This document shows positions 1,166-31,015 of a DNA stretch of 32,000 nt, in pieces. The DNA lies in contig OY782392.1 of NCBI GenBank assembly GCA_963677765.1, forward strand, positions 60,001 through 92,000, read 5' to 3'. The stretch comes from Candidatus Saccharimonadota bacterium. Lineage in GTDB: Bacteria; Patescibacteriota; Gracilibacteria; BD1-5; UBA6164. Made by a program: the position numbers and the translations under genes. Position 1 is the first letter of the stretch. Every line of letters starts with the position of its first letter. The notes under the pieces are model-generated. The model saw only the letters and a program-made list of their open reading frames with translations, searched no databases and was not told the DNA's origin.

Positions 1166-2215
1166 ATGGAAGAAATAAAATTTAGAGATAAATTAGAAAG
1201 ACAAAGATTTGATAATTTATACAATGAGAAATGACATCTTTTGACAAAAGACTTAGAACTATTAATAAAAAATGTTATAGTTATTTTTAAGAGGCATTCA
1301 AATGATGAGTCATACTTAACATTAGCACTAATATATTGAATGCTATACTTTTGAATTATAGATAAAAACCATAATATTATAAAAAAATCAGATTCAGAAA
1401 AAATAAAACTTATTAAATTAAGTTTTAAATATGAAATGGAATGAGATTATAAAAAATTTTTGGATGTAGTATTAGAAATGGAAAAAGATTTATTTCTTTT
1501 CAAAACTGTTATTAAATATTCTATTTTGTCTTTTGAAAAGAAATTTATAAAAATAGCTTCAAATCAAGAAAATTATTATAAATCAATATGATATGTATTA
1601 CCATACCTTACATATATTGAATCACCTTTCCTTGGTTTTTTCCAAGATATATATTTTAAGAAGGTTTATCCTAAAAAATATGAAAAAATAAGAAAATTCT
1701 ATAGAGAAAGAGTTGATAGAATAGAATTTCCTTGAGAGCATATGTTTACAATGGTAAATAATCTTACAAATATAATGATGCAATCAGAATCATTTTGAAA
1801 TATTAAAGTAAGAAGAAAAACATATTTTAGTATATATAATAAACGTATAAGAAAAAAAGGTAATACAAGTATGGATAATATAGGTATAAGAGTAATTTTT
1901 CCTGATAAAGAAAATTTAGAAAAATTTGTTAAATTATTTGAAGAAAAATATGTTTTTATAGAAAAAAAAGACTATATAGAAAAACCTAAAGAAAACTGAT
2001 ATAAAAGCATACACTTCAAATACATAAGTCCGTATAGAGATTCTCAAGTATTAGTTGAGTTACAATTAAGAACACTAAAAATGGATAAAGAAATTCATTC
2101 AACTGATATAATAAGCCATTTTAGCTATACTTTAAACCAAAATAAATGGTCTAAAAATTTCAAAGAAATACAACAATGATATATCTATACATCAAAAATA
2201 TTAGAGATTAAATAA
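1166..2215 (+). CDS. RelA/SpoT-homolog (RSH) protein: degenerate HD-like N-terminal half plus intact (p)ppGpp-synthetase domain, no TGS/ACT C-terminal region (349 aa)
   Basis: All four synthetase motifs are in frame: RRKTYFSIYNKRIRK (RxKxxxSxxxK), DNIGIRVIF (DxxGxR[IV]), ENGYKSIHF (GYxSxH, with G encoded by TGA) and VELQLRT (ExQxRT). The segment FQDIYFKKVYPKKYEKIRKFYRERVDR resembles the HD-SYNTH linker of long RSHs. ATG 1166, TAA 2213-2215. Confidence 0.8.
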
Positions 2216-2227
2216 TTATTAGAAAAA

Positions 2228-3949
2228 GTGAAACATTTAAAGGTAAAAATAAAAAATTTAGAGTTTGATTGAGAAACTATATTAAAGGATATAGATTTTA
2301 CACTAAATAAAACAGATAGAGTTTCTATTGTATGATCTAATTGAGCATGAAAAACTACACTATTAAAATTATTAACATGAGAAATAAAATGATATGATTG
2401 AAGTATAGATAATGTATGAAATTTAACTTTATGATATCTAAAGCAAATACATAGTGATAATGATAATAAATTAGTTAGAGAAGAATTAAAAGAAGCATTT
2501 ACAGATATAATAGAAATGGAAAAGTCTTTATCTATCCTAGAAGAAAAAATGTGAGAAGAACCTGAAAATATTCAAATAATAGAAGACTATACATCAATGC
2601 TTGAACAGTTCAATAATATTTGATGAAATGACTTTAATAACAAAATCCACAATGTAGCAAATTGAATATGAATTTTTGAATTATTAAATAAAAAATTAAA
2701 TGAAATAAGTTGATGACAGAGAACAAAAGTTGCACTAGCAAAAGTATTATTGGAATCTCCTGATATATTATTCTTGGATGAACCAACTAACTTTATAGAT
2801 ATGTGAAGTGTTGAGTGGTTAGAAAGCTTTTTACAAAATAAATGGAAAAGTTGATATGTAATAATTTCTCATGATAGAGAATTTTTAGATAAAACATGTG
2901 ATAAAACATATGAAGTTCAACCTAAAAGATGAATAACATATTATCATACAAACTATACATGATATTTGGCAGAGAGGGATAAAATAGAAAAGAAAAAATT
3001 AGAAGATTATAAAAGAGAGCAAGAATTTATAGACAAAGAAGAAAAATTAATCAATAGATTTAGAGCTTGAAGTAGAGCTTGATGGGCAAAATCAAGAGAA
3101 AAGGCACTAGAAAAGAGAGAAGTTATTCAAGCTCCTTTTATAGCTAAAAAACCAAAATTCTTTTTTAGCTTTACTTGAGAAGTACCAGAAAAAGTTCTTA
3201 GTTTTAAGGAGTGTTTTATATGAAGAGAAGAACCTTTGTTTTATATAAATGAAGTATATTTATATAAAAAACAAAGGATAGGTATAGTTTGAGAAAATTG
3301 AGTTTGAAAATCTACATTTTTAAAAACTATTATATGACAATTAGAAATTCTTGATTGATTTTATAGTAAAGGAAAATGAGTTAAGTTTTGATATTATTCA
3401 CAATTACATGAGGAATTAGATTTTAATCTAACAATAAGACAAAATTTTGAAAAAGCATGAATTAATTACCCTGAACAAAATCTTATTTGATTACTAAGTC
3501 ATTATCTTTTTGAAAGAGAAGATTTAGATAAAAAAGTTAGTGATTTATCTTGATGACAAACATCTAAACTACTATTTGCTATATTATGACAGAAAGAATA
3601 CAACTTACTAATACTTGATGAACCAACTAATCACCTAGATTATGATACTAGAGAAAGCTTAGAACAATCATTAAAAGAATTTAACTGAGCAATTCTTTTT
3701 ATATCTCATGATAGATATTTTGTAAATAAACTAGCTACAAATATATGGTTTATAGATAATAATGAATTATCTGTATCTTACTGAAACTATGAAGATTATA
3801 AATTCAAACAAGAACACAATATAGATATGGATATGAGTTTATTTGATGAAGAAGCACAATTAAATCTTGTATTAGAAGAAAAATTATGAGAAAAACAATT
3901 CAAAAGACTAAAAGATAAATTTAGCTGAAGAAAGCATAGAAGGAAATAA
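2228..3949 (+). CDS. ABC-F family ATPase (two ABC cassettes, no TM domain; Uup/YheS/EttA-like translation factor class), 573 aa
   Basis: Two Walker A motifs, GSNGAGKTTLL (2331-) and GENGVGKSTFL, in which most or all Gly are TGA. Two LSGGQ signatures, two Walker B motifs (ILFLDEPTN, LLILDEPTN) and a K/E-rich inter-cassette linker. GTG 2228 is the first plausible start after the in-frame TAA at 2213-2215. TAA 3947-3949. Confidence 0.9.
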
Positions 3950-4017: not shown

Positions 4018-4548
4018 ATGAATTTATACCATGATATACCATTAGGTAATGAAGATTTTTCTGAAATTAATGCAGTTGTAGAAATACCAAAATGAAGTAA
4101 AGTAAAATATGAATTTGATTATAAAACAGGTGCTGTATGGGTAGATAGAGTTGGAAAAACTCCTATTGATTATACTTTTAATTATTGAGATTTACCTCAA
4201 ACATGGAATGAATGAGATAATGATCCATTAGATGTAATTATCTTATGTACTCAACCATTACATCCAGGAACTGTAGTTCCACTAAGAGTTGTTGGTGGAT
4301 TAAAAATGATAGATTCATGAGAAGATGATTACAAAGTATTAGCTGTTGCTGATGATAAATACTATTCTGATGTTAATGATATAGAAGATGTTAACAAAAA
4401 AGAATTAGAAGATATAGAATATTATATGTTACACTATAAAGATTTACATGGTAAAAAAGTAGAACTTAATGGTTGGGATAATAAATCAACTGCTCAAGAA
4501 ATATTAAAAAAATGTAATGAAGATTACAAGAAAAAATTCAATAAATAA
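4018..4548 (+). CDS. ppa: Inorganic pyrophosphatase (family I), 176 aa
   Basis: Translation ...VVEIPKGSKVKYEFD...DGDPLDV-like (NEGDNDPLDVIIL)...VVGGLKMIDSGEDDYKVLAV is the classical soluble PPase signature. ATG 4018, TAA 4546-4548. Confidence 0.92.
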
Positions 4549-4560
4549 TATTTAAAAAAT

Positions 4561-4590
4561 AGATATAATGTTACATTATATCTATTTTTT
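4561..4590 (+). terminator. Rho-independent terminator after ppa
   Basis: Perfect 10-bp stem agatataatg / cattatatct (4561-4570 / 4574-4583) with a 3-nt loop, followed by aTTTTTT. Confidence 0.8.
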
Positions 4591-4730
4591 AAATAAAAAA
4601 CTTGCTATATATCAAATATAAATATAATTAAATTTGTAAAACTAAATTTTTTCATTTGTGTTCAATAGTTATCAGAATAATCATGGCCATTTGTGAATAA
4701 TTTATTTTACGGTTTTTATTTAATTAGTAC

Positions 4731-4994
4731 ATGTATATGGAAACTAAAAAATTATTCATTGGAGGTTTATCTTGGGGGTTAGATTGGCAAGAAATCAAAG
4801 ACGTATTTAAAGAATACGGAGAAGTTGTTTTCGTTAAAGTTATCAAAGATAGAGAAACTGGAAAATCTAAAGGTTTTGGTTTTGTTGAATTTGAAAACTT
4901 AGAAGATGCTGTTAAAGCTAAAGAAGCTATGGACGGTGCTGAAGTTGATGGTAGAACAATTAAAGTTGATTTTGCTGTTGAGAAAGAAGCATAG
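4731..4994 (+). CDS. RRM-type (RNP-1/RNP-2) single-domain RNA-binding protein, 87 aa
   Basis: RNP-2 LFIGGL and RNP-1 KGFGFVEF are both present. Intact ORF even under the standard code; TAG stop 4992-4994. The start may be ATG 4731 or ATG 4737. All 9 Gly are GGN and there is no TGA. Confidence 0.9.
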   Translation: MYMETKKLFIGGLSWGLDWQEIKDVFKEYGEVVFVKVIKDRETGKSKGFGFVEFENLEDAVKAKEAMDGAEVDGRTIKVDFAVEKEA

Positions 4995-5004
4995 TTTTTT
5001 CAAA

Positions 5005-13484: not shown

Positions 13485-15257
13485 TTAATTTACATAATCA
13501 TCCAAATCTATTGTTATATTATATTTTTCAGCATATACTTTTCATATAAAATAAACTATTTCAAAAATTTGTTTTGTATTAAGATTATTTCAATCAAAAA
13601 ATTTTTCAGAAAAATATAATCAAACATCATCAACTATATCATATGGTTTAATAGATTTTAATCAATTATTTTCTACATATTTTACAACTTTTTTTTCTAC
13701 ATATCTGTATACCACTCTTTGTGTAAGAGGATAAAAATTATCTTTATGTTCTTGTAAAAAATCAAATCTTCACAATGCAGTAACATCAGAAAGTAATTCT
13801 ACCATTGAACAATTTCTAAGAAACTTAATATCTCAAGAGTTAAATCATAAGTCAGTAAAAACTTTTTCCATTTGTCTCAAATCTTCAGAAAAATCTGTAT
13901 CATCATCATCTATATGCAAATTATAGATAGAGATATATTCTGTCATCAACTCATTTAATCATCTAAGTTTATCTAGATTTATTCATTGATTAAATATTAA
14001 ATTATTATGATTATTAGCTACAAGTTCTTTTCATTTTATAGATTCATTTTGTTCATCAAGAAATTCATTAGCTACATAAACATTATAAATAGTTTTTTCT
14101 CAATCCATATCAAGAGCAATTTCTATAGGAGCTTTTATGTGATAAAATTCTTGGAATCTTTCAGAATTAAATAAGTCAATAAGTTTATTTTCAACATGCT
14201 TTTCAAAAGATCAAATTAATCATCTAGCTCAAGATTTTTGATTAAATCAATTTTCAAGTATAGATGATATTATATTTTCTCATAATGATATTGATAAATC
14301 CATTGTTTTATAATACCTCTTATAATGCTCATTTAATTTTCTTTCTTGAATTCTTATTATTTCTAAAGCATTTTCTTTAGTAAGAGATTCAAATTCAATA
14401 AATTTATCAACTCTTCATCTAAACTCTGGAGAAAATCTTTCTTTTATTGCTTTTTTTATTATTTCAGATGAGTCTTTATTTTCTGATTCTTCTGAGGCAG
14501 AAACAAATCACATAGTTGGTTTTGATTTAGTTTCCTCTATTTCTTTTTGTCAGATATTAGATGTAAATATTATTATAGAATTTTTAAAATATCATGTTTT
14601 TCAATCTCAAAATGTAACTTTTCACTCATCCAAAATTCATAGAAGCGATTGAGCAACATCTCTATGTGCTTTTTCAAATTCATCAAATAAAATAATATTA
14701 AATCATGGCATATGTCTTATAGAATCATGAATTGTTCATGCCTTTTTAGCTCATTCATAATATCAATCTAATATTTTTGGATCTAATGGTGTTGGATCTC
14801 AATAACCAACATAAGATGGTGGAGCTCAAAATAATTGTCTTTTACTATGAGACTCTTGATAAGCTTCACAATTTATTTTTGTAAATCAACCTTCATATCA
14901 CATTAATACTTTGGATATACATTTTACTATTTCAGTCTTACCTACTCATGTAGGACCTGAAAAAAACAATACACCCAAAGGTCATTTTTTTGGCTTAGTT
15001 CATAAAACAGAGTTTTTAATTAATTGAGCAACAATTTTTTTAGCTTCATCTTGTCAAATAATTTCTTTGTTCATTTCATCGATGAATTCTTGTTCTAATG
15101 GATGTATTTCATCCAGCTCAATAGTATGACATACTCTATCTTTTACATCATAAACAATATGTTCAGTATTTTCTTCCCTCCTTTCGTTATTATTTATAGC
15201 TGTATTTCATTTTTTATATTCTAATAAAGCAACAGCTCATCAATTAGTATTTATCAT
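13485..15257 (-). CDS. Stand-alone ClpB/ClpA D2-type AAA+ ATPase (AAA_2 + ClpB_D2-small) with about 200-aa uncharacterised C-terminal extension, 590 aa
   Basis: IIGQDEAKKIVAQLI...PLGVLFFSGPTGVGKTEIVK (Walker A), NIILFDEFEKAHRDV (Walker B), IIIFTSNIG, RFSPEFRGRVDKFIEF and SGARGLI (sensor 2) follow the order and wording of Clp/Hsp100 NBD2. No NBD1, N-domain or middle domain is present. ATG 15257, TAA 13487-13485. Confidence 0.8.
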
Positions 15258-17480: not shown

Positions 17481-17556
17481 TGGTGGATCCACCGGGGTTC
17501 GAACCCGGGACCTATCGCTTAAGAGGCGAGTGCTCTACCAACTGAGCTATGAATCC
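17481..17556 (-). tRNA. tRNA-Lys (anticodon CUU), CCA encoded
   Basis: Reverse complement: GGATTCATAGCTCAGTTGGTAGAGCACTCGCCTCTTAAGCGATAGGTCCCGGGTTCGAACCCCGGTGGATCCACCA. It has a 7-bp acceptor stem, D-arm GCTC/GAGC, anticodon loop C-T-CTT-A-A, T-arm CCGGG-TTCGAAC-CCCGG and a 3' CCA. Confidence 0.93.
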
Positions 17557-24242: not shown

Positions 24243-26339
24243 TTATAAATTATTTAAAAAATTATCTAAATCTATAACTTCTACTCATAAGTCATTTGCT
24301 TTTTTAAGTTTTGATCAAGCTTTTTCTCAAGCCAAAAGAAAATCAGTTTTTTTTGTTACGCTTGATACAAACTCTCAACCTGATTTTTCAAGTTTTTCAA
24401 CTAAACTATCTCTAGAAACTTTTTGTCATTCTAATTCAAAACTTCATGTTATACACACTTTTTTGTTATTGAAAATTGAATTAGTATCAATATTTATATA
24501 TTCATAATATTTTATATTTAATATATCTACTAATTGTGTTAGAATTATTTTATGAGAATCTGAATTAAAATAATTAACAATATTTTTTGCTAACTCTGGT
24601 CATATATCATTCAAAGATATTAAATCATCTTCTGTCAAAGAAAAGTCCAAAATAGAGTTTTTATCTGTAAAAAATCTAGAAATTATTTTAGAAGTTTTTT
24701 TACCAACTCATGGAATTCATATAGCTGATAAAAAAGTAGTAATATCAACTTTTTTAGATTTTTCAACTCATTCTATAAGATTATTAACTGATTTTTCTTT
24801 ATATCATTCCAAAGATAAAATTATATCCTTTTTATCTTTTATATTGAAAATATCAACTAAGTTATTTATAATACCTAATTCTAAAAACAACTCTACTTGC
24901 CTCTCTCAAAATCAATCAATATTAAATCAAGACTTTCAAACTGAATATGTTAACATTTCAGAATGTTTAGCAGGACAATCAATATCATTTGGACAATAAT
25001 ATCTTACTTTATCTTCATCTTTTTTAACTGGAGTTTTACAAGAAGGACAAAATTCTGGAGTATGTATTTTTTCTAAATCATTTCTATTAAATTTTTCTCA
25101 TTTAAAAGTTATAAAATCTCAATTATCTACAACTCATGTAATTTTTGGAATAACTTCTCAAGCTCTTTTTATAAAAACATAATCACCTAATCTTACTCAA
25201 AGTTTCTCTATTTCATCATAGTTATGTAAAGTGGCTCTTTTAACTATTACTCATCAAATATTTATAGCTTCAAGATTAGCAACAGGTGTTATTGTTCATG
25301 TTCTTCATACACTGTGATCTACTGAAATTATTTGAGTAGTAAATATTTCTGCTGGAAATTTATAAGCAATTGCATATCTAGGATGATGAGCAGTCCATCA
25401 AATATCTGACCATAAATCTATAGAATTTACTTTTATAACTAGACCATCTATTTCAAAATCTATATCTTTCTTAAAAGAATCAATAGTATCAATAGAATCA
25501 ATAACTCATTCAATTGAATCAAATATTTCAAAATAACTAGATATTTCAAATCATAGTTTTTCTAAATCTAATATAACATCATAATAATTAGAAATATTTT
25601 CTCTATGTCTAAATTCATCAAAATTAGCTAAATCATAAGCATAGAATTTTAAATTTCTTTCTTTAGTAATTTTTATATCTTTTGTTCTAACACTTCAACT
25701 AGCAGCATTTCTAGGATTTGAAAAAACTTTTTTATTTTCTTTTATAGCTTTTTTATTCAGAGATTCAAAAGAGCTAATAGGCATTACAACTTCTCATCTA
25801 ACTTCTAAATGTTCTTTGTAATCAATATATTTAGGTATATTATCTATACAAAAAATATTTTGAGTAACATCTTCTCATTCAATACCATTTCACCTAGTAA
25901 TAGCTTGTACCAATTCTCATTTTTTATAAATAAGCTCTATTCATAATCAATCAAATTTGTATTCCAAAGTATATGAAACATTATTTATTTTTTCGTTATC
26001 AATATTTTTTATAACTCTATCATTAAAATCTCTAAGATCAATTTCATTATAAGTATTATCAAGACTAATCATAGGTCTAGAATGTCTTACTTTTTCAAAA
26101 CTAGATTCTATTATTTCAGCTCAAACTCTAAGAGTTTGTTTGTAATTAGGATTATATTTATCTTCTAAAAACTCTAATTTTTTAAAAAGCAAATCATACT
26201 CATTATCAGAAATAATAGGAGATTCTTTATTATAATAAAGGTCACTATGATATTCAATAATTTTTTGTAAATTTTCTAAATCTTCCCTATTTAAATCATT
26301 ATTATCTATATTTAGATATTTTTTTGATAATTCTAACAC
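24243..26339 (-). CDS. ligA: NAD+-dependent DNA ligase, 698 aa
   Basis: N-terminal Ia domain ...YHSDLYYNKESPIISDNEYDLLFKKLEFLE, adenylation motif EYKFDGLGIEL (KxDG) and Zn finger CPSC...C-x-C. HhH region GIPGVGKKTS and a C-terminal BRCT-like segment ITGSFE. GTG start at 26339 (the first start candidate after the in-frame stop). TAA 24245-24243, 1 nt before the GH3 start. Confidence 0.9.
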
Positions 26340-26652
26340 TATATTTTTGTTAAAAAATAATTAAAGACAACGAAAAAATTAACATTTTATATTAAAAAAT
26401 AGTTATTTTTAGCATAAAAAAGATCTTTTAACTATTTTTTAACAATATTATTAAGTAGTAATATTTTGTATACAAAAATGTAACAAAAATGACTTTTTAA
26501 AGGTTTATTTTTTACTACTTATGTATACTTTTTTTGAACAAAAACACAAGTTTTTTTATAAAAATTACATACAAATAAATAACTAGTTTTTCTCTATTTT
26601 AAAGCAAAAACTAACAAAAAATTTAAAATAATTAAAAAAAAGTTATTTTTTT

Positions 26653-26682
26653 TTGGAAGATAATTTAAAAAAGTGTTATAAT
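26653..26682 (+). promoter_or_regulatory. Near-consensus sigma70-type promoter with extended -10, driving the non-coding region
   Basis: TTGGAA (26653-26658), an 18-bp spacer, then TGtTATAAT (26674-26682). Predicted TSS about 26687-26690. Confidence 0.55.
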
Positions 26683-26686
26683 AGTT

Positions 26687-27149
26687 ATGTAAGTTAGTTC
26701 AAACGAGCTACATCTTACATTCCTTAAAATGTTAACTTCTACTCTGTCAGAATGGTTTTTGCAAAAATCCAGCAAAACACCTCAAATAGATTTAGCTTTG
26801 ACTAAATCAACAAAAATAAAAACAAAAAGGGTTGTTAGTTGTATTCATTTAGAAATTAACATAGATTGATTTTTAAATGAATACAACTAACTCCAAGAAA
26901 AAAAACAAAAATACGAAAAAAATTTCGAAAAACAAAAACAAAAGAGAATGGTGAATAGCTCTCTAAAAATTACCCAAACAGAGTTCAAGTTAGTCGTGTA
27001 AACCGACAAGAAAAGCAAGGATTAGTTTTTCAAAACTGATCTTTATTCCCCTTAGCATTGAACAAACACACTTTTTATCGCTTTGGATGTGAATTTAGAC
27101 ACCACACCGCTTAAGTACTATTACCCAATATGCTTAAGCTCTTTTTTTT
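26687..27149 (+). ncRNA. Candidate novel structured ncRNA, about 460 nt (or about 505 nt if the second terminator is used); class unknown
   Basis: Promoter upstream and tandem terminators downstream, with no credible ORF under code 25. Hairpins: nested 26687-26720 (atgtaag..tagttc-aaac-gagcta..cttacat), 26753-26771, 26789-26808, an 18-bp perfect stem 26834-26851/26874-26891, 26914-26927, an 11-bp stem 27019-27043, and 27109-27139. ATTACCCAA is repeated at 26969-26977 and 27120-27128. The region looks locally GC-richer than its flanks by eye. Confidence 0.45.
27109..27149 (+). terminator. First of two tandem intrinsic terminators ending the candidate ncRNA
   Basis: gcttaag (27109-27115) pairs with cttaagc (27133-27139) over a 17-nt loop, followed by tcTTTTTTTT (27142-27149). 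Confidence 0.5.
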
Positions 27150-27151
27150 AC

Positions 27152-27192
27152 AAAAAAACTCTCTAATATATTTATTAGAGAGTTTTATTTTT
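27152..27192 (+). terminator. Second tandem intrinsic terminator
   Basis: 12-bp stem aaactctctaat / attagagagttt (27156-27167 / 27174-27185) with loop atattt, followed by a T-rich tail TTTTATTTTT. Confidence 0.8.
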
Positions 27193-27204
27193 AGTAGACT
27201 TAGC

Positions 27205-27232
27205 TTTACATAATCAAATTAGTAAATATTAT
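27205..27232 (+). promoter_or_regulatory. Putative promoter of the nrnA-like / GT2 / pyk gene string
   Basis: TTTACA (27205-27210), a 16-bp spacer, then TATTAT (27227-27232), about 30 nt upstream of ATG 27263. Confidence 0.4.
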
Positions 27233-27262
27233 CTATAAAAAGTTAATTATTAAATAAAAAAT

Positions 27263-28234
27263 ATGTTAGAAAAAATAAATGAATTTAAAAAACTAATTGA
27301 AAACTCAAAAAATATACTACTTATAAATCATATAAGAATGGATCCAGATGCATTTTGAAGTTTGGCAGCTTTTTATTTAATAATGAATAAATACTGAAAA
27401 AATGTTAGAGCAATAAATGATGAAAACACACCTGAAAGCTTTAATTTTTTATGAGCAGAAAATATTATAGAAAAAAATTTAGATATAAAATCGTACAATC
27501 CTGATTTAATAATAAGTTTTGATGCAGCTAGTATATGACAATTATGAGAAACATACAAAAATAACAAAGATATATTTGATAAAAATAATTTTGTTGTAAT
27601 TGATCATCATATGACGAATGAAGGATTTTGAAAATTAAATATAATAGATTCAAAAATGTCCTCTACATGTGAATTACTATTTTATATACTTGAAAAAATA
27701 GATTTAGTTAAATATATAGAAAAAAAAGAAGCAACATTATTAACTGCATGAATACATACTGATACAAATATATTTTACAATTCAAACACAAACAGTTCTA
27801 CTTTAATTACTGCGGCAAAATTAATGGATTTATGAGCTGATTTTAGAGCTCCAATGTATAATTTTTTTCAAAAATCAAGTTATGAAAAATTAAAACTGAC
27901 ATGACTTATTTTTCAATCATTAAAAAAATCCGAAGATTGAAAAATAATATGGGTTAAAATAACAAAAGACTTCTTCGAAAAAACTAATTCAAGTGATGAA
28001 GATATTAGTTGAATTATAAATAGAATGATAAATGTCGATTGATGTGAAATTGCGTTTATTATATATGAAATCTGAAATCTAGTAAAAGCTAGTTTTAGAT
28101 CAAAAGAATATAGTGTTTGAGACCTATGTGCTAGTTTCCCTAATTGATGATGACACAGACTAGCTGCATGATTTAGAAGTGAAAAAGATATAAATACTAT
28201 AGAAAAAGAAATTTTAGATAAAATAAAATTATAA
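27263..28234 (+). CDS. DHH/DHHA1-family phosphoesterase (NrnA-like oligoribonuclease / pAp phosphatase), 323 aa
   Basis: Motifs ILLINHIRMDPDAFGS (DHH motif I/II region), VVIDHH, TAGIHTDT and C-terminal NGGGHRLAAGF (GGGH, all three Gly are TGA). ATG 27263, TAA 28232-28234. Confidence 0.85.
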
Positions 28235-30577: not shown

Positions 30578-30606
30578 AAAAACTAGGATTAAAACCTAGT
30601 TTTTTA
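30576..30606. terminator. Bidirectional terminator between pyk and the convergent 139-aa gene
   Basis: Stem aactagg / cctagtt (30581-30587 / 30595-30601) with a 7-nt loop, flanked by an A-run and a T-run. The TAG stop of the minus-strand gene lies in the right arm. Confidence 0.7.
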
Positions 30607-31015
30607 TTTTTGAGAAAATTACTCTATTAATTTTTGGTAAGATATGATCAACTTTTATATCACCTGATATAACACAATTAACTTTTAGAGAAAAAAGTTT
30701 ATTTATAATTTTTTCATTTATTATATATAAACTCTCTTGACCATAAGAAACTTTATTATTAATAAACAATATTACAACTACATTATTTACAAGTATATTT
30801 TTATAAAAAGTTTCATCTTCTAAACTATCAGCATCAATAATAAAAATATTTAAAGAAGTTATATCTAGTTCCAATAAAGAATATTTTTCAATTTCTAGAT
30901 AAGTAACAGCAATGCTAATATAATTTTTCATACTAACAAAGGCACTTTCTACATTTTTTTCAAAATCATGAGATACATTTAAATTATCCCCTATATATAG
31001 ATTTACTTTTAACAT
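30596..31015 (-). CDS. Hypothetical protein, 139 aa (alternating beta/alpha pattern loosely reminiscent of a receiver/flavodoxin-like fold)
   Basis: Intact in any code (no TGA), with a TAG stop. It is the only gene in the window with a canonical SD: GAGGAGGaattaATG (31016-31027, minus strand). A possible TTGACT -35 lies at 31074-31069. The fold suggestion rests only on KVNLYIGDN / NIFIIDADS / VVVILFINN strand-like segments. Confidence 0.6.
   Translation of the reverse strand: MLKVNLYIGDNLNVSHDFEKNVESAFVSMKNYISIAVTYLEIEKYSLLELDITSLNIFIIDADSLEDETFYKNILVNNVVVILFINNKVSYGQESLYIINEKIINKLFSLKVNCVISGDIKVDHILPKINRVIFSKIKN

Follow-up and report, generated by a model that had tools for sequence, protein, structure and literature searches.

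Bacterial RNAs that exceed 400 nucleotides (nt) and combine many covarying helices with tertiary contacts are rare. Large, complex bacterial RNAs of known role are ribozymes or belong to central RNA-protein machines; others, such as OLE, ROOL, GOLLD, and raiA, are unexplained and are active research targets. Bacteria of the Candidate Phyla Radiation (CPR) are unculturable and host-dependent and have stripped-down genomes. Here we describe an RNA of this size class from the CPR lineage Gracilibacteria. It is encoded in a 32,000-nt stretch of contig OY782392.1 (positions 60,001 to 92,000; below, the window), in the gap between the DNA ligase gene ligA and an nrnA-like phosphoesterase gene. The first-pass annotation had singled out this long gap, poor in open reading frames (ORFs), as the locus of a free-standing novel structured noncoding RNA (ncRNA); the gap spans 26340-27262 and measures 923 nt. 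The proposal is borne out by conservation in relatives, by covariation, by the absence of an Rfam match and of a conserved ORF, and by loci whose layout does not fit a leader RNA. We are highly confident that the gap holds a real, free-standing, structured ncRNA gene of a new Gracilibacteria family.

The RNA resembles OLE, ROOL, GOLLD, and raiA in its length of more than 400 nt, in its many covarying helices, pseudoknots, and strongly conserved unpaired nucleotides, in its narrow phylogenetic range, and in having been found by comparison of a long, G+C-richer intergenic region. It differs from them in the lack of an Rfam match, in the host lineage (CPR/Patescibacteria using genetic code 25), and in its motifs; the models of these four families and of HEARO gave no match at the gathering score or at E <= 10. 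We know of no protein genes comparable to oapA, oapB, and oapC for this RNA. Searched with Rfam 15 at the gathering score, the whole window yielded nothing but a tRNA-Lys, and 11 further loci yielded tRNAs only. At E <= 10 the 1-kb gap produced only generic microRNA-model hairpin matches and a few sub-threshold small RNA models, and no family recurred among eight homologue loci. ARAGORN detected no transfer-messenger RNA (tmRNA) in the window or in 15 homologue loci. The RNA matches no known family in the window or in the homologues, and the literature searched describes no Gracilibacteria or CPR ncRNA of this kind. With neither an Rfam family nor an ARAGORN call, and with no describing paper in that literature, we rate the RNA as a new class of large bacterial RNA.

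The gap contains one gene on the plus strand, with its own sigma-70-type promoter and intrinsic terminator. The near-consensus promoter noticed at first reading (26653-26682; -35 TTGGAA, an 18-bp spacer, and the extended -10 TGtTATAAT) is the top sigma-70-type match of the region in a promoter scan (10/12 with the extended TG). TATAAT or TATACT stands at a fixed distance from the conserved GTAAGTTA in all 38 homologues having upstream sequence, with the TG extension in 26 and TTG at -35 in 29 of them. Taking a start 7 nt past the -10 hexamer and an end in the T-tract, the RNA would cover about 26689-27149, that is, ~460 nt. The G+C enrichment previously judged by eye is also real: G+C content is 26-35% across 26650-27174 versus 13-19% in 26275-26724, with a window average of 22.5%. 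The plus-strand fold of 26685-27150 has an energy of -113.5 kcal/mol and a z-score of -10.6 relative to dinucleotide shuffles, whereas the minus strand reaches a z-score of -3.4 only. The G-U pairs fit the plus strand alone (alignment columns 65/427 are UG in 30 of 40 sequences); because they would be A-C mismatches on the other strand, the plus strand is the transcribed one. All RNA features below are therefore given on the plus strand.

The 3' end is formed by the intrinsic terminator hairpin H11 (27108-27140) and its T-tract (together 27108-27149). Eight of the nine H11 stem pairs show changes on both sides, for example GCUUAAG/CUUAAGC versus GACUCAG/CUGAGUC. The apical motif UAUUACCCAAUA is conserved; it contains the second copy of the repeat ATTACCCAA (27120-27128), and UACC is kept in the loop. 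H11 was not called by the terminator scan, its loop being too large, and is backed by covariation instead; a hairpin and a T-tract close all 40 homologue copies. A second terminator (27152-27192; hairpin 27155-27186 with 14 pairs, followed by ATTTTT) was called by the scan beyond the end of the conserved RNA. There is no sequence conservation in it, but a second terminator recurs in L093, L007, L009, L010, L036, L087, and the L016 group. Both members of the predicted terminator tandem were thus recovered, one through covariation and the other through the scan, and the scan also found the predicted promoter-like site of the nrnA-like gene (27205-27232). Directly past the T-tract, most homologues (L006, L001, L010, L011, L033, and others) carry a conserved box, YGUCUAAAAUUU. 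It is absent from the window (27150-27160), and both the window and its closest relative, L093, have the strong second terminator there. A helix between AAUUUAGAC within the RNA and this box forms 8-10 bp in several copies, but it is 65% paired overall, as in shuffles, and was rejected.

A LigA-anchored scan of species-representative genomes yielded four metagenome-assembled genomes of Gracilibacteria, and all four have a homologue of 26640-27200 just upstream of ligA on the opposite strand (nhmmer E 8e-89 to 8e-16). LigA homologues from a protein collection led to 11 more contig sets, with the RNA upstream of ligA in all those assessed except L019 and L114; L018 was too short and was left out of the presence count. 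A degenerate 26-nt pattern covering A-tract 2 and the H7 loop (see below) retrieved 90 metagenome stretches, about 45 of which are true homologues. A phage origin was considered and rejected, as the three IMG/VR matches to this pattern are due to chance. The homologue search was thus positive in relatives, with the RNA recovered in >45 Gracilibacteria contigs and nhmmer E-values of 1e-115 to 1e-33 over about 60 loci. The 40 distinct full-length copies, 401-546 nt long with a G+C content of 22-33%, were aligned (alignment A2). The nucleotide identity of the RNA to L093, L006, L001, and L009 is 92, 88, 86, and 80%, respectively, compared with 92, 80, 80, and 72% for ligA and 88, 77, 71, and 69% for the spacer between them. 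In close and mid-distance relatives, RNA identity equals or tops that of ligA and nrnA, and that of the spacer is lower.

Helices were obtained from RNAalifold and from a mutual-information scan with average-product correction, which agreed on most of them, and the model was refined by hand. Pairs were counted on the 40 sequences of A2, with partners slid by 1-3 columns and 500 shuffles as controls. The model has 102 pairs in 13 helices, and 93.9% of cells form standard pairs, as opposed to 30.6-46.3% after sliding. Both sides change in 76 of the 102 pairs (53 in shuffles) and in 556 cells (152 in shuffles), and on none of five measures did any of the 500 shuffles reach the value observed. The highest-scoring mutual-information pairs fall on model helices. 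Covariation, proposed earlier as a check on the RNA, is thus very strong.

Two domains make up the fold. A long-range helix closes domain I, and domain II extends from H8 as far as the terminator hairpin. The 5' hairpin H1 (26688-26719; 95.8% paired) has a near-invariant 5' strand, GUAAGUUA, with G4, T5, A6, G8, T9, T10, and A11 unchanged in 40/40 sequences; one compensatory change, from A-U to G-C, is observed. Domain I (26733-26992) is supported by covariation of its closing helix H2 (26733-26747 with 26978-26992), in which 12 of 13 pairs change on both sides, with up to five pair types per position, and which is among the top mutual-information pairs; a long-range inverted repeat was also detected mechanically in the gap. 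Hairpin H3 (26754-26781) has a covarying lower stem GGN/NCC (GGU/ACC, GGG/CCC, GGA/UCC, GGC/GCC), an upper stem in which all five pairs covary, and the loop AAAAAUCCA (26763-26771). RNAalifold paired GG 26754-26755 with CC of the first ATTACCCAA, and this was discarded since the GG belongs to the H3 lower stem. A small variable hairpin, H4 (26788-26808; GAUUUAG/CUAAAUC), is matched by a hairpin of differing sequence in most homologues, as judged by eye in the alignments and unscored. The long hairpin H5 (26834-26891; 97.5% paired) is a variable expansion segment. Its arms, 26834-26859 and 26866-26891, have 26 nt each and are 92% complementary, and 19 of 22 pairs change on both sides. The hairpin is dispensable: the L013, L016, and L078 groups have at most a very short version of it, and L023, L088, and L106 an enlarged one. 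The small variable hairpin H6 (26914-26927; CGAAA/UUUCG), also identified by eye, differs in stem sequence among homologues and is missing from the shortest ones. Hairpin H7 (26943-26962) shows both-side changes in five of seven pairs. A single pair between columns 72 and 420 (G-C in 31 sequences, G-U in 7, and A-U in 2) may be real as well.

Domain II begins with the small variable hairpin H8 (26993-27007), all four pairs of which change on both sides. Its pairing level of only 81% goes with imperfect alignment at this position, and a clade comprising L002, L003, L004, L023, and L033 has an insertion of ~30 nt there. It is followed by H9' (27010-27031; stem GAAAAGC/GUUUUUC, 8-nt loop AAGGAUUA), which is 93.6% paired with both-side changes in six of seven pairs. 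Helix H12 (GAUCU 27038-27042 with AGAC 27097-27100; 27038-27100) covaries, columns 519/586 being G-C in 22 sequences and A-U in 9, and encloses the irregular helix H10 (27045-27055 with 27081-27094), where five of six inner pairs change on both sides. The conserved strands of this region are UUAUUCCCCU and AGGAWGUGAAU. From the hairpin series listed in the first-pass annotation, the 5' hairpin, the long stem (now extended to 26-nt arms), and the stems at about 26754-26781, 26788-26808, and 26914-26927 are retained, and the 11-bp stem at 27019-27043 is not. The latter belongs to the minimum-energy fold, but it is 73.7% paired, which is the shuffle level; both its arms are engaged in other, covarying pairings, and H9' replaces it.

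The two domains are tied together by a covarying kissing interaction between AAUCC of the H3 loop (26766-26770) and GGAUU of the H9' loop (27019-27023). The kiss first surfaced as two high-scoring, non-nested pairs of the mutual-information scan (90/501 and 92/499). Its pairing level is 99.5%, and three of its five pairs change on both sides, from U-A to C-G in six sequences and from C-G to U-A in nine. The fold also has a pseudoknot in the element 26943-26977, in which GGUGA of the H7 loop (26950-26954) pairs with the UUACC (26970-26974) that belongs to the first ATTACCCAA. Its pairing level reaches 97.5%, but covariation support is weak to moderate: one of five pairs changes on both sides, two never vary, and the middle pair is G-U in 27 sequences, G-C in 8, U-G in 2, and A-U in 1. 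The 9-nt repeat ATTACCCAA had been pointed out at 26969 and 27120, and indeed its TTACC/TACC core is conserved at both sites in homologues.

Two A-rich tracts stand out among the unpaired regions of the 40 sequences. A-tract 1, ACAAAAAUAAAAACAAAAA (26810-26828), is single-stranded and near-invariant and reads as (AAN)6; A-tract 2, AAAAACAAAAACAAAAG (26928-26944), is likewise near-invariant. The tracts are AAAAAY repeats of 17-19 nt with the shared core AAAAYAAAAAYAAA, each lies between hairpins, and the mutual-information scan found no covarying partner for either. Other conserved unpaired blocks are GUAAGUUA, AGAAYGG, UUAUUCCCCU, AGGAWGUGAAU, and UACC(C/A)A on the terminator hairpin. The A-tract, AGNAUGG, and UUACC are each present twice.

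A gene for a 0.4-0.5 kb RNA that is under selection at least as strong as that on DNA ligase, in a stripped-down genome, implies an important function. The family is defined by its alignment of 40 sequences, by a secondary structure that has been tested, by the two tertiary pairings, and by clear bounds at the promoter and the terminator. This is sufficient for a covariance model, for gene annotation, and for synthesis of the RNA for probing, pull-down, and cryo-EM. Annotation would benefit because the locus is at present covered by hypothetical ORFs in public gene calls. One of them, at 4240-4734 (+) of L011 (164 aa, no Pfam match), overlies the gene on the opposite strand; another, at 4601-4993 (+) of L016 (130 aa, no Pfam match), overlaps the RNA 5' end only and covers the spacer. 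Both are probably annotation artefacts.

As the best overall explanation we favor, with modest confidence, a new-family ncRNA gene whose product acts in trans together with protein. The RNA would be stable and abundantly made. From a rigid folded core, the two single-stranded A-tracts, both of which can be read as (AAN)6, and the C-rich loops would project as binding platforms. The bound partner, an RNA-binding protein or a ribosomal subunit, would be scaffolded or sequestered, and no cis control of a neighboring gene would be involved. The scaffold or sponge mechanism in particular is proposed by analogy and is tentative, a possibility that we hold with more doubt than belief. Protein binding is suggested by the near-invariance of the two unpaired tracts, their shared core, and the lack of a covarying partner. 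Single-stranded motifs flanked by hairpins are the layout of the protein-sponge RNAs CrcZ, RsmY, and RsmZ, and (AAN)6 has the length and register bound by the distal face of the Hfq hexamer. The Pseudomonas CrcZ, which titrates Hfq/Crc, is likewise a free-standing RNA of about 400 nt with its own promoter and terminator and with repeated single-stranded A-rich motifs of the AAnAAn type between hairpins. It was the only family of known function to surface over the RNA, with a meaningless score of 10.7 bits versus a gathering score of 95. Such a score indicates no homology; the RNA is not a CrcZ member, and the likeness is functional only. Moreover, there are two tracts here instead of six, and the remainder of the RNA is a covarying core, tightly folded and with tertiary contacts, which is more than a sponge requires.

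Several points weigh against a trans-acting, protein-associated RNA. L019 and L114, both code-25 Gracilibacteria, have no RNA copy within 12-14 kb of ligA. In these genomes there is no gap upstream of ligA (at 5001 and 6001, respectively), TatD and Metallophos genes are neighbors in both, and LigA is 57-58% identical to that of the window; this clade either keeps the RNA elsewhere or lacks it. A-rich sequence is common at 22% G+C, and the tracts are distinctive by their invariance, not by composition. The ends, abundance, and stability of the RNA are inferred from sequence. The near-constant divergent pairing with ligA could mean a functional link that a trans-acting role ignores. The candidate partner, an 87-aa single-domain protein with an RNA recognition motif (RRM_1, E = 3e-26; clear RNP-1 and RNP-2 motifs), is a lead and not evidence, its gene (4731-4994, plus strand) lying 22 kb from the RNA. 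Finally, given its size and tight fold, the RNA could be a catalyst rather than a passive scaffold. RRM genes are also observed 1.6-2.5 kb beyond ligA in L011 and L113. As further leads only, the A-tracts resemble the A-rich mRNA leaders of the window genes, and ribosomal protein bS21 is often missing in the lineage (PMC9297842).

The main rival to a scaffold is catalysis, in view of how large and complex the RNA is. The RNA may be a ribozyme of a new kind or form the core of a ribonucleoprotein (RNP) machine still to be discovered, with the invariant unpaired blocks as its active or substrate site. With 400-550 nt, at least 11 helices, two tertiary pairings, and many invariant unpaired positions, it has the complexity generally known to be typical of catalytic or machine-like RNAs. 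RNase P and group I and II introns are precedents, and the same argument has been made for OLE, GOLLD, and ROOL. The conserved UACC- and GGUGA-type motifs may resemble elements that pair with tRNA ends or elbows. Nevertheless, we can name neither a substrate nor a cleavage site nor a processing partner, and none of the Rfam ribozyme models matches the motifs. A variable expansion such as H5 and long A-rich linkers are also more scaffold-like. We regard this reading as unlikely. The RNA core of a machine confined to Gracilibacteria, be it a ribozyme of a new kind or an RNP that rivals RNase P or the signal recognition particle (SRP) in complexity, is a doubtful but less distant prospect. Such a machine would act on tRNA, mRNA leaders, or ribosomal subunits, with contacts made via the A-tracts, AGAAYGG, GGUGA/UUACC, and the UACCCA loop, in hosts whose ribosomes are reduced, whose stop codon is recoded, and whose genes make almost no use of Shine-Dalgarno sequences.

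Less likely again than catalysis is a multi-hairpin base-pairing regulator in the style of Staphylococcus aureus RNAIII, in which the C-rich loops (UACCCA, UUACCC) would pair with G-rich mRNA sites. The two RNAs are of similar length, both consist of a string of hairpins with A-rich linkers, and the conserved C-rich loop on the terminator hairpin recalls the well-known hairpin 14 of RNAIII. However, RNAIII carries hld and our RNA has no embedded ORF, and our RNA has a long-range closed domain and a kiss. The targets of RNAIII-type C-rich loops are Shine-Dalgarno sequences, yet 25 of the 26 upstream regions in the window are plain A/T; since the host barely uses Shine-Dalgarno sequences, the targeting logic of RNAIII is not transferable. 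In addition, the first UUACC is already paired internally in the pseudoknot, and no target was identified.

It is improbable that the RNA is a regulator tied to ligA, either through a shared divergent control region or by acting on the ligA 5' untranslated region. The order ligA-RNA-nrnA expected from the window holds on the ligA side, as ligA is divergent and about 300-400 nt away in all informative loci but L088, and fails as a rule on the other side, where nrnA is the usual but not obligatory downstream gene. The A/T-rich spacer between ligA and the RNA contains conserved boxes at 26467-26476, 26522-26529, and 26538-26555, which are kept where LigA is only ~60% identical. They include the perfect palindrome TTGTATACAA, a second box ATGTATAC at a distance of ~54 nt, and ACAAAAACACAAGTTTTT with an AAAAAC/GTTTTT inverted repeat, and they look like operator or promoter elements for ligA, the RNA, or both. 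Both the adjacency, which stands beside a varying gene on the far side of ligA, and these boxes speak for a link with ligA, as does the complementarity of the spacer box UGUUUUUGU (ligA strand) to the A-tracts, a weak argument in an A/T-rich genome. On the other hand, in L088 (region 1394-3309) the RNA follows a different, co-directional gene of >446 aa without an assigned function, and there H5 and H8 are enlarged; L019 and L114 have ligA without an adjacent RNA. A fold of 13 helices with tertiary contacts far exceeds such a need, and the adjacency can also be explained by inherited gene order. A replication origin in the A/T-rich spacer was also considered and rejected: GC skew tracks gene orientation, and in the complete genome CP042461 the locus is found at 0.41 of the length.

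A highly divergent RNase P RNA, tmRNA, SRP RNA, or 6S RNA missed by standard models is very improbable, in agreement with the earlier judgement that the hallmarks of the first three are absent. In favor of such a housekeeping RNA, the RNA is found in most of the Gracilibacteria examined. Type B RNase P RNA is of comparable size with a two-domain fold and also has a loop-loop kiss, L5.1-L15.1, which can be compared with the kiss between a hairpin inside the first long-range helix and a hairpin of the 3' half here. The RNase P RNAs of CPR bacteria are known to be diverged and to need sub-threshold searches (Lui et al., PMC8172020). However, RNase P RNAs with many conserved features were found in all circular CPR genomes studied, including two Gracilibacteria, and Rfam models recovered them there (PMC8172020). 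None of the four families was matched at E <= 10 in the 1-kb gap or the eight homologue loci. The RNA lacks the P4 pseudoknot, the CR-I (GGAAAGUC...) and CR-V (ACAGAA..GGCUUA) motifs, and P1: in the mutual-information scan the 5' linker has no pairing partner in the 3' region, and the two ends are taken up by the local hairpin H1 (5') and the terminator (3'). Segments that by eye resemble CR-II to CR-V, namely AUGGUGAAUAG, GUGUAAACCGAC..GCAAGG, and GGAUGUGAAU..GACAC..CCGCUUAAG, were rejected because homologues do not conserve GUAAAC, because CCGCUUAAG is nothing but the covarying stem of the terminator, and because P4, P1, and a model match are lacking.

For tmRNA, there is neither a tRNA-like domain in the ARAGORN and Rfam (E <= 10) searches nor an acceptor pairing of the ends. 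A tag read from the A-tract (NKNKNK...) was rejected, as frames and stops differ among homologues; there is no tag ORF, and the frame after the A-tract is not conserved. The covariation-supported structure contains no SRP domain IV hairpin. 6S RNA consists of one long, irregular hairpin (about 180-200 nt) opened by a large central bubble, whereas the fold here is branched, has two domains, and extends over 400-550 nt. The housekeeping RNAs are thus largely refuted.

A long attenuator or riboswitch leader for the string of nrnA, the family-2 glycosyltransferase gene (GT2), and the pyruvate kinase gene (pyk) had been offered as the alternative to a free-standing RNA. As a general function it is refuted, and we consider it most improbable for the family. 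The DHH gene does lie 70-120 nt past the terminator on the same strand in the window and many homologues, and a conserved terminator hairpin is regulable in principle. Nevertheless, in L007, L009, and L010, for which gene calls are available, the RNA keeps its promoter and terminator, the adjacent downstream gene is convergent (adh_short or CitMHS), and nrnA is found 2-3 kb off, beyond opposite-strand genes; in L036, L046, and L087 it is displaced by 1-3 kb with other genes between. Some of the best-conserved RNA copies come from these loci. In the window, two tandem terminators are followed by the separate promoter-like site of nrnA. For a terminator/anti-terminator switch, two alternative pairings were considered, neither of which beats shuffles, and the alignment past the T-tract is poor. 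The RNA's own signals, the convergent neighbor in three loci, and an upstream gene other than ligA in L088 thus agree with the earlier view of a free-standing RNA gene.

A small protein gene is refuted and of negligible probability: the gap does contain ORFs longer than the 29 codons previously given as the maximum under code 25 (a 53-codon ATG ORF at 26729-26890, plus strand, and a 73-codon TTG ORF at 26665-26886, minus strand), but no ORF, these two included, is conserved among homologues, the start codon and frame of the former are missing in most of them, indels are not multiples of three, and stem substitutions are compensatory, not synonymous.

The genes of the window are continuous only if TGA is read as a sense codon for glycine (genetic code 25), the code of Gracilibacteria and Absconditabacteria. 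TGA is frequent throughout the window and largely replaces GGN for glycine; ligA alone has 35 in-frame TGA versus 6 GGN codons, with TGA at conserved glycines, e.g. TRGNGIEGEDVT. The public LigA proteins nearest to that of the window are labelled Candidatus Gracilibacteria. The ligA gene (24243-26339, minus strand) encodes an NAD-dependent DNA ligase of 698 aa that homologues cover to 100%, with the Nlig-Ia domain at residues 22-69. The nrnA-like gene (27263-28234, plus strand) encodes a DHH/DHHA1 phosphoesterase and is followed by GT2 and pyk. Among 26 window genes, a Shine-Dalgarno-like sequence was seen only for 30596-31015 (upstream GAGGAGG), the other start regions being plain A/T-rich leaders. 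The tRNA-Lys(CTT) (17481-17556, minus strand; Rfam span 17484-17556) is the sole Rfam or ARAGORN feature of the window and recurs a few kb beyond ligA in L004, L008, L009, and L011, which indicates the extent of the kept gene order. Elsewhere in the window, 1166-2215 (plus strand) encodes a 349-aa protein whose only domain is of the RelA/SpoT synthetase type, as in a small alarmone synthetase, and 13485-15257 (minus strand) encodes a 590-aa ClpB-like AAA_2 ATPase.

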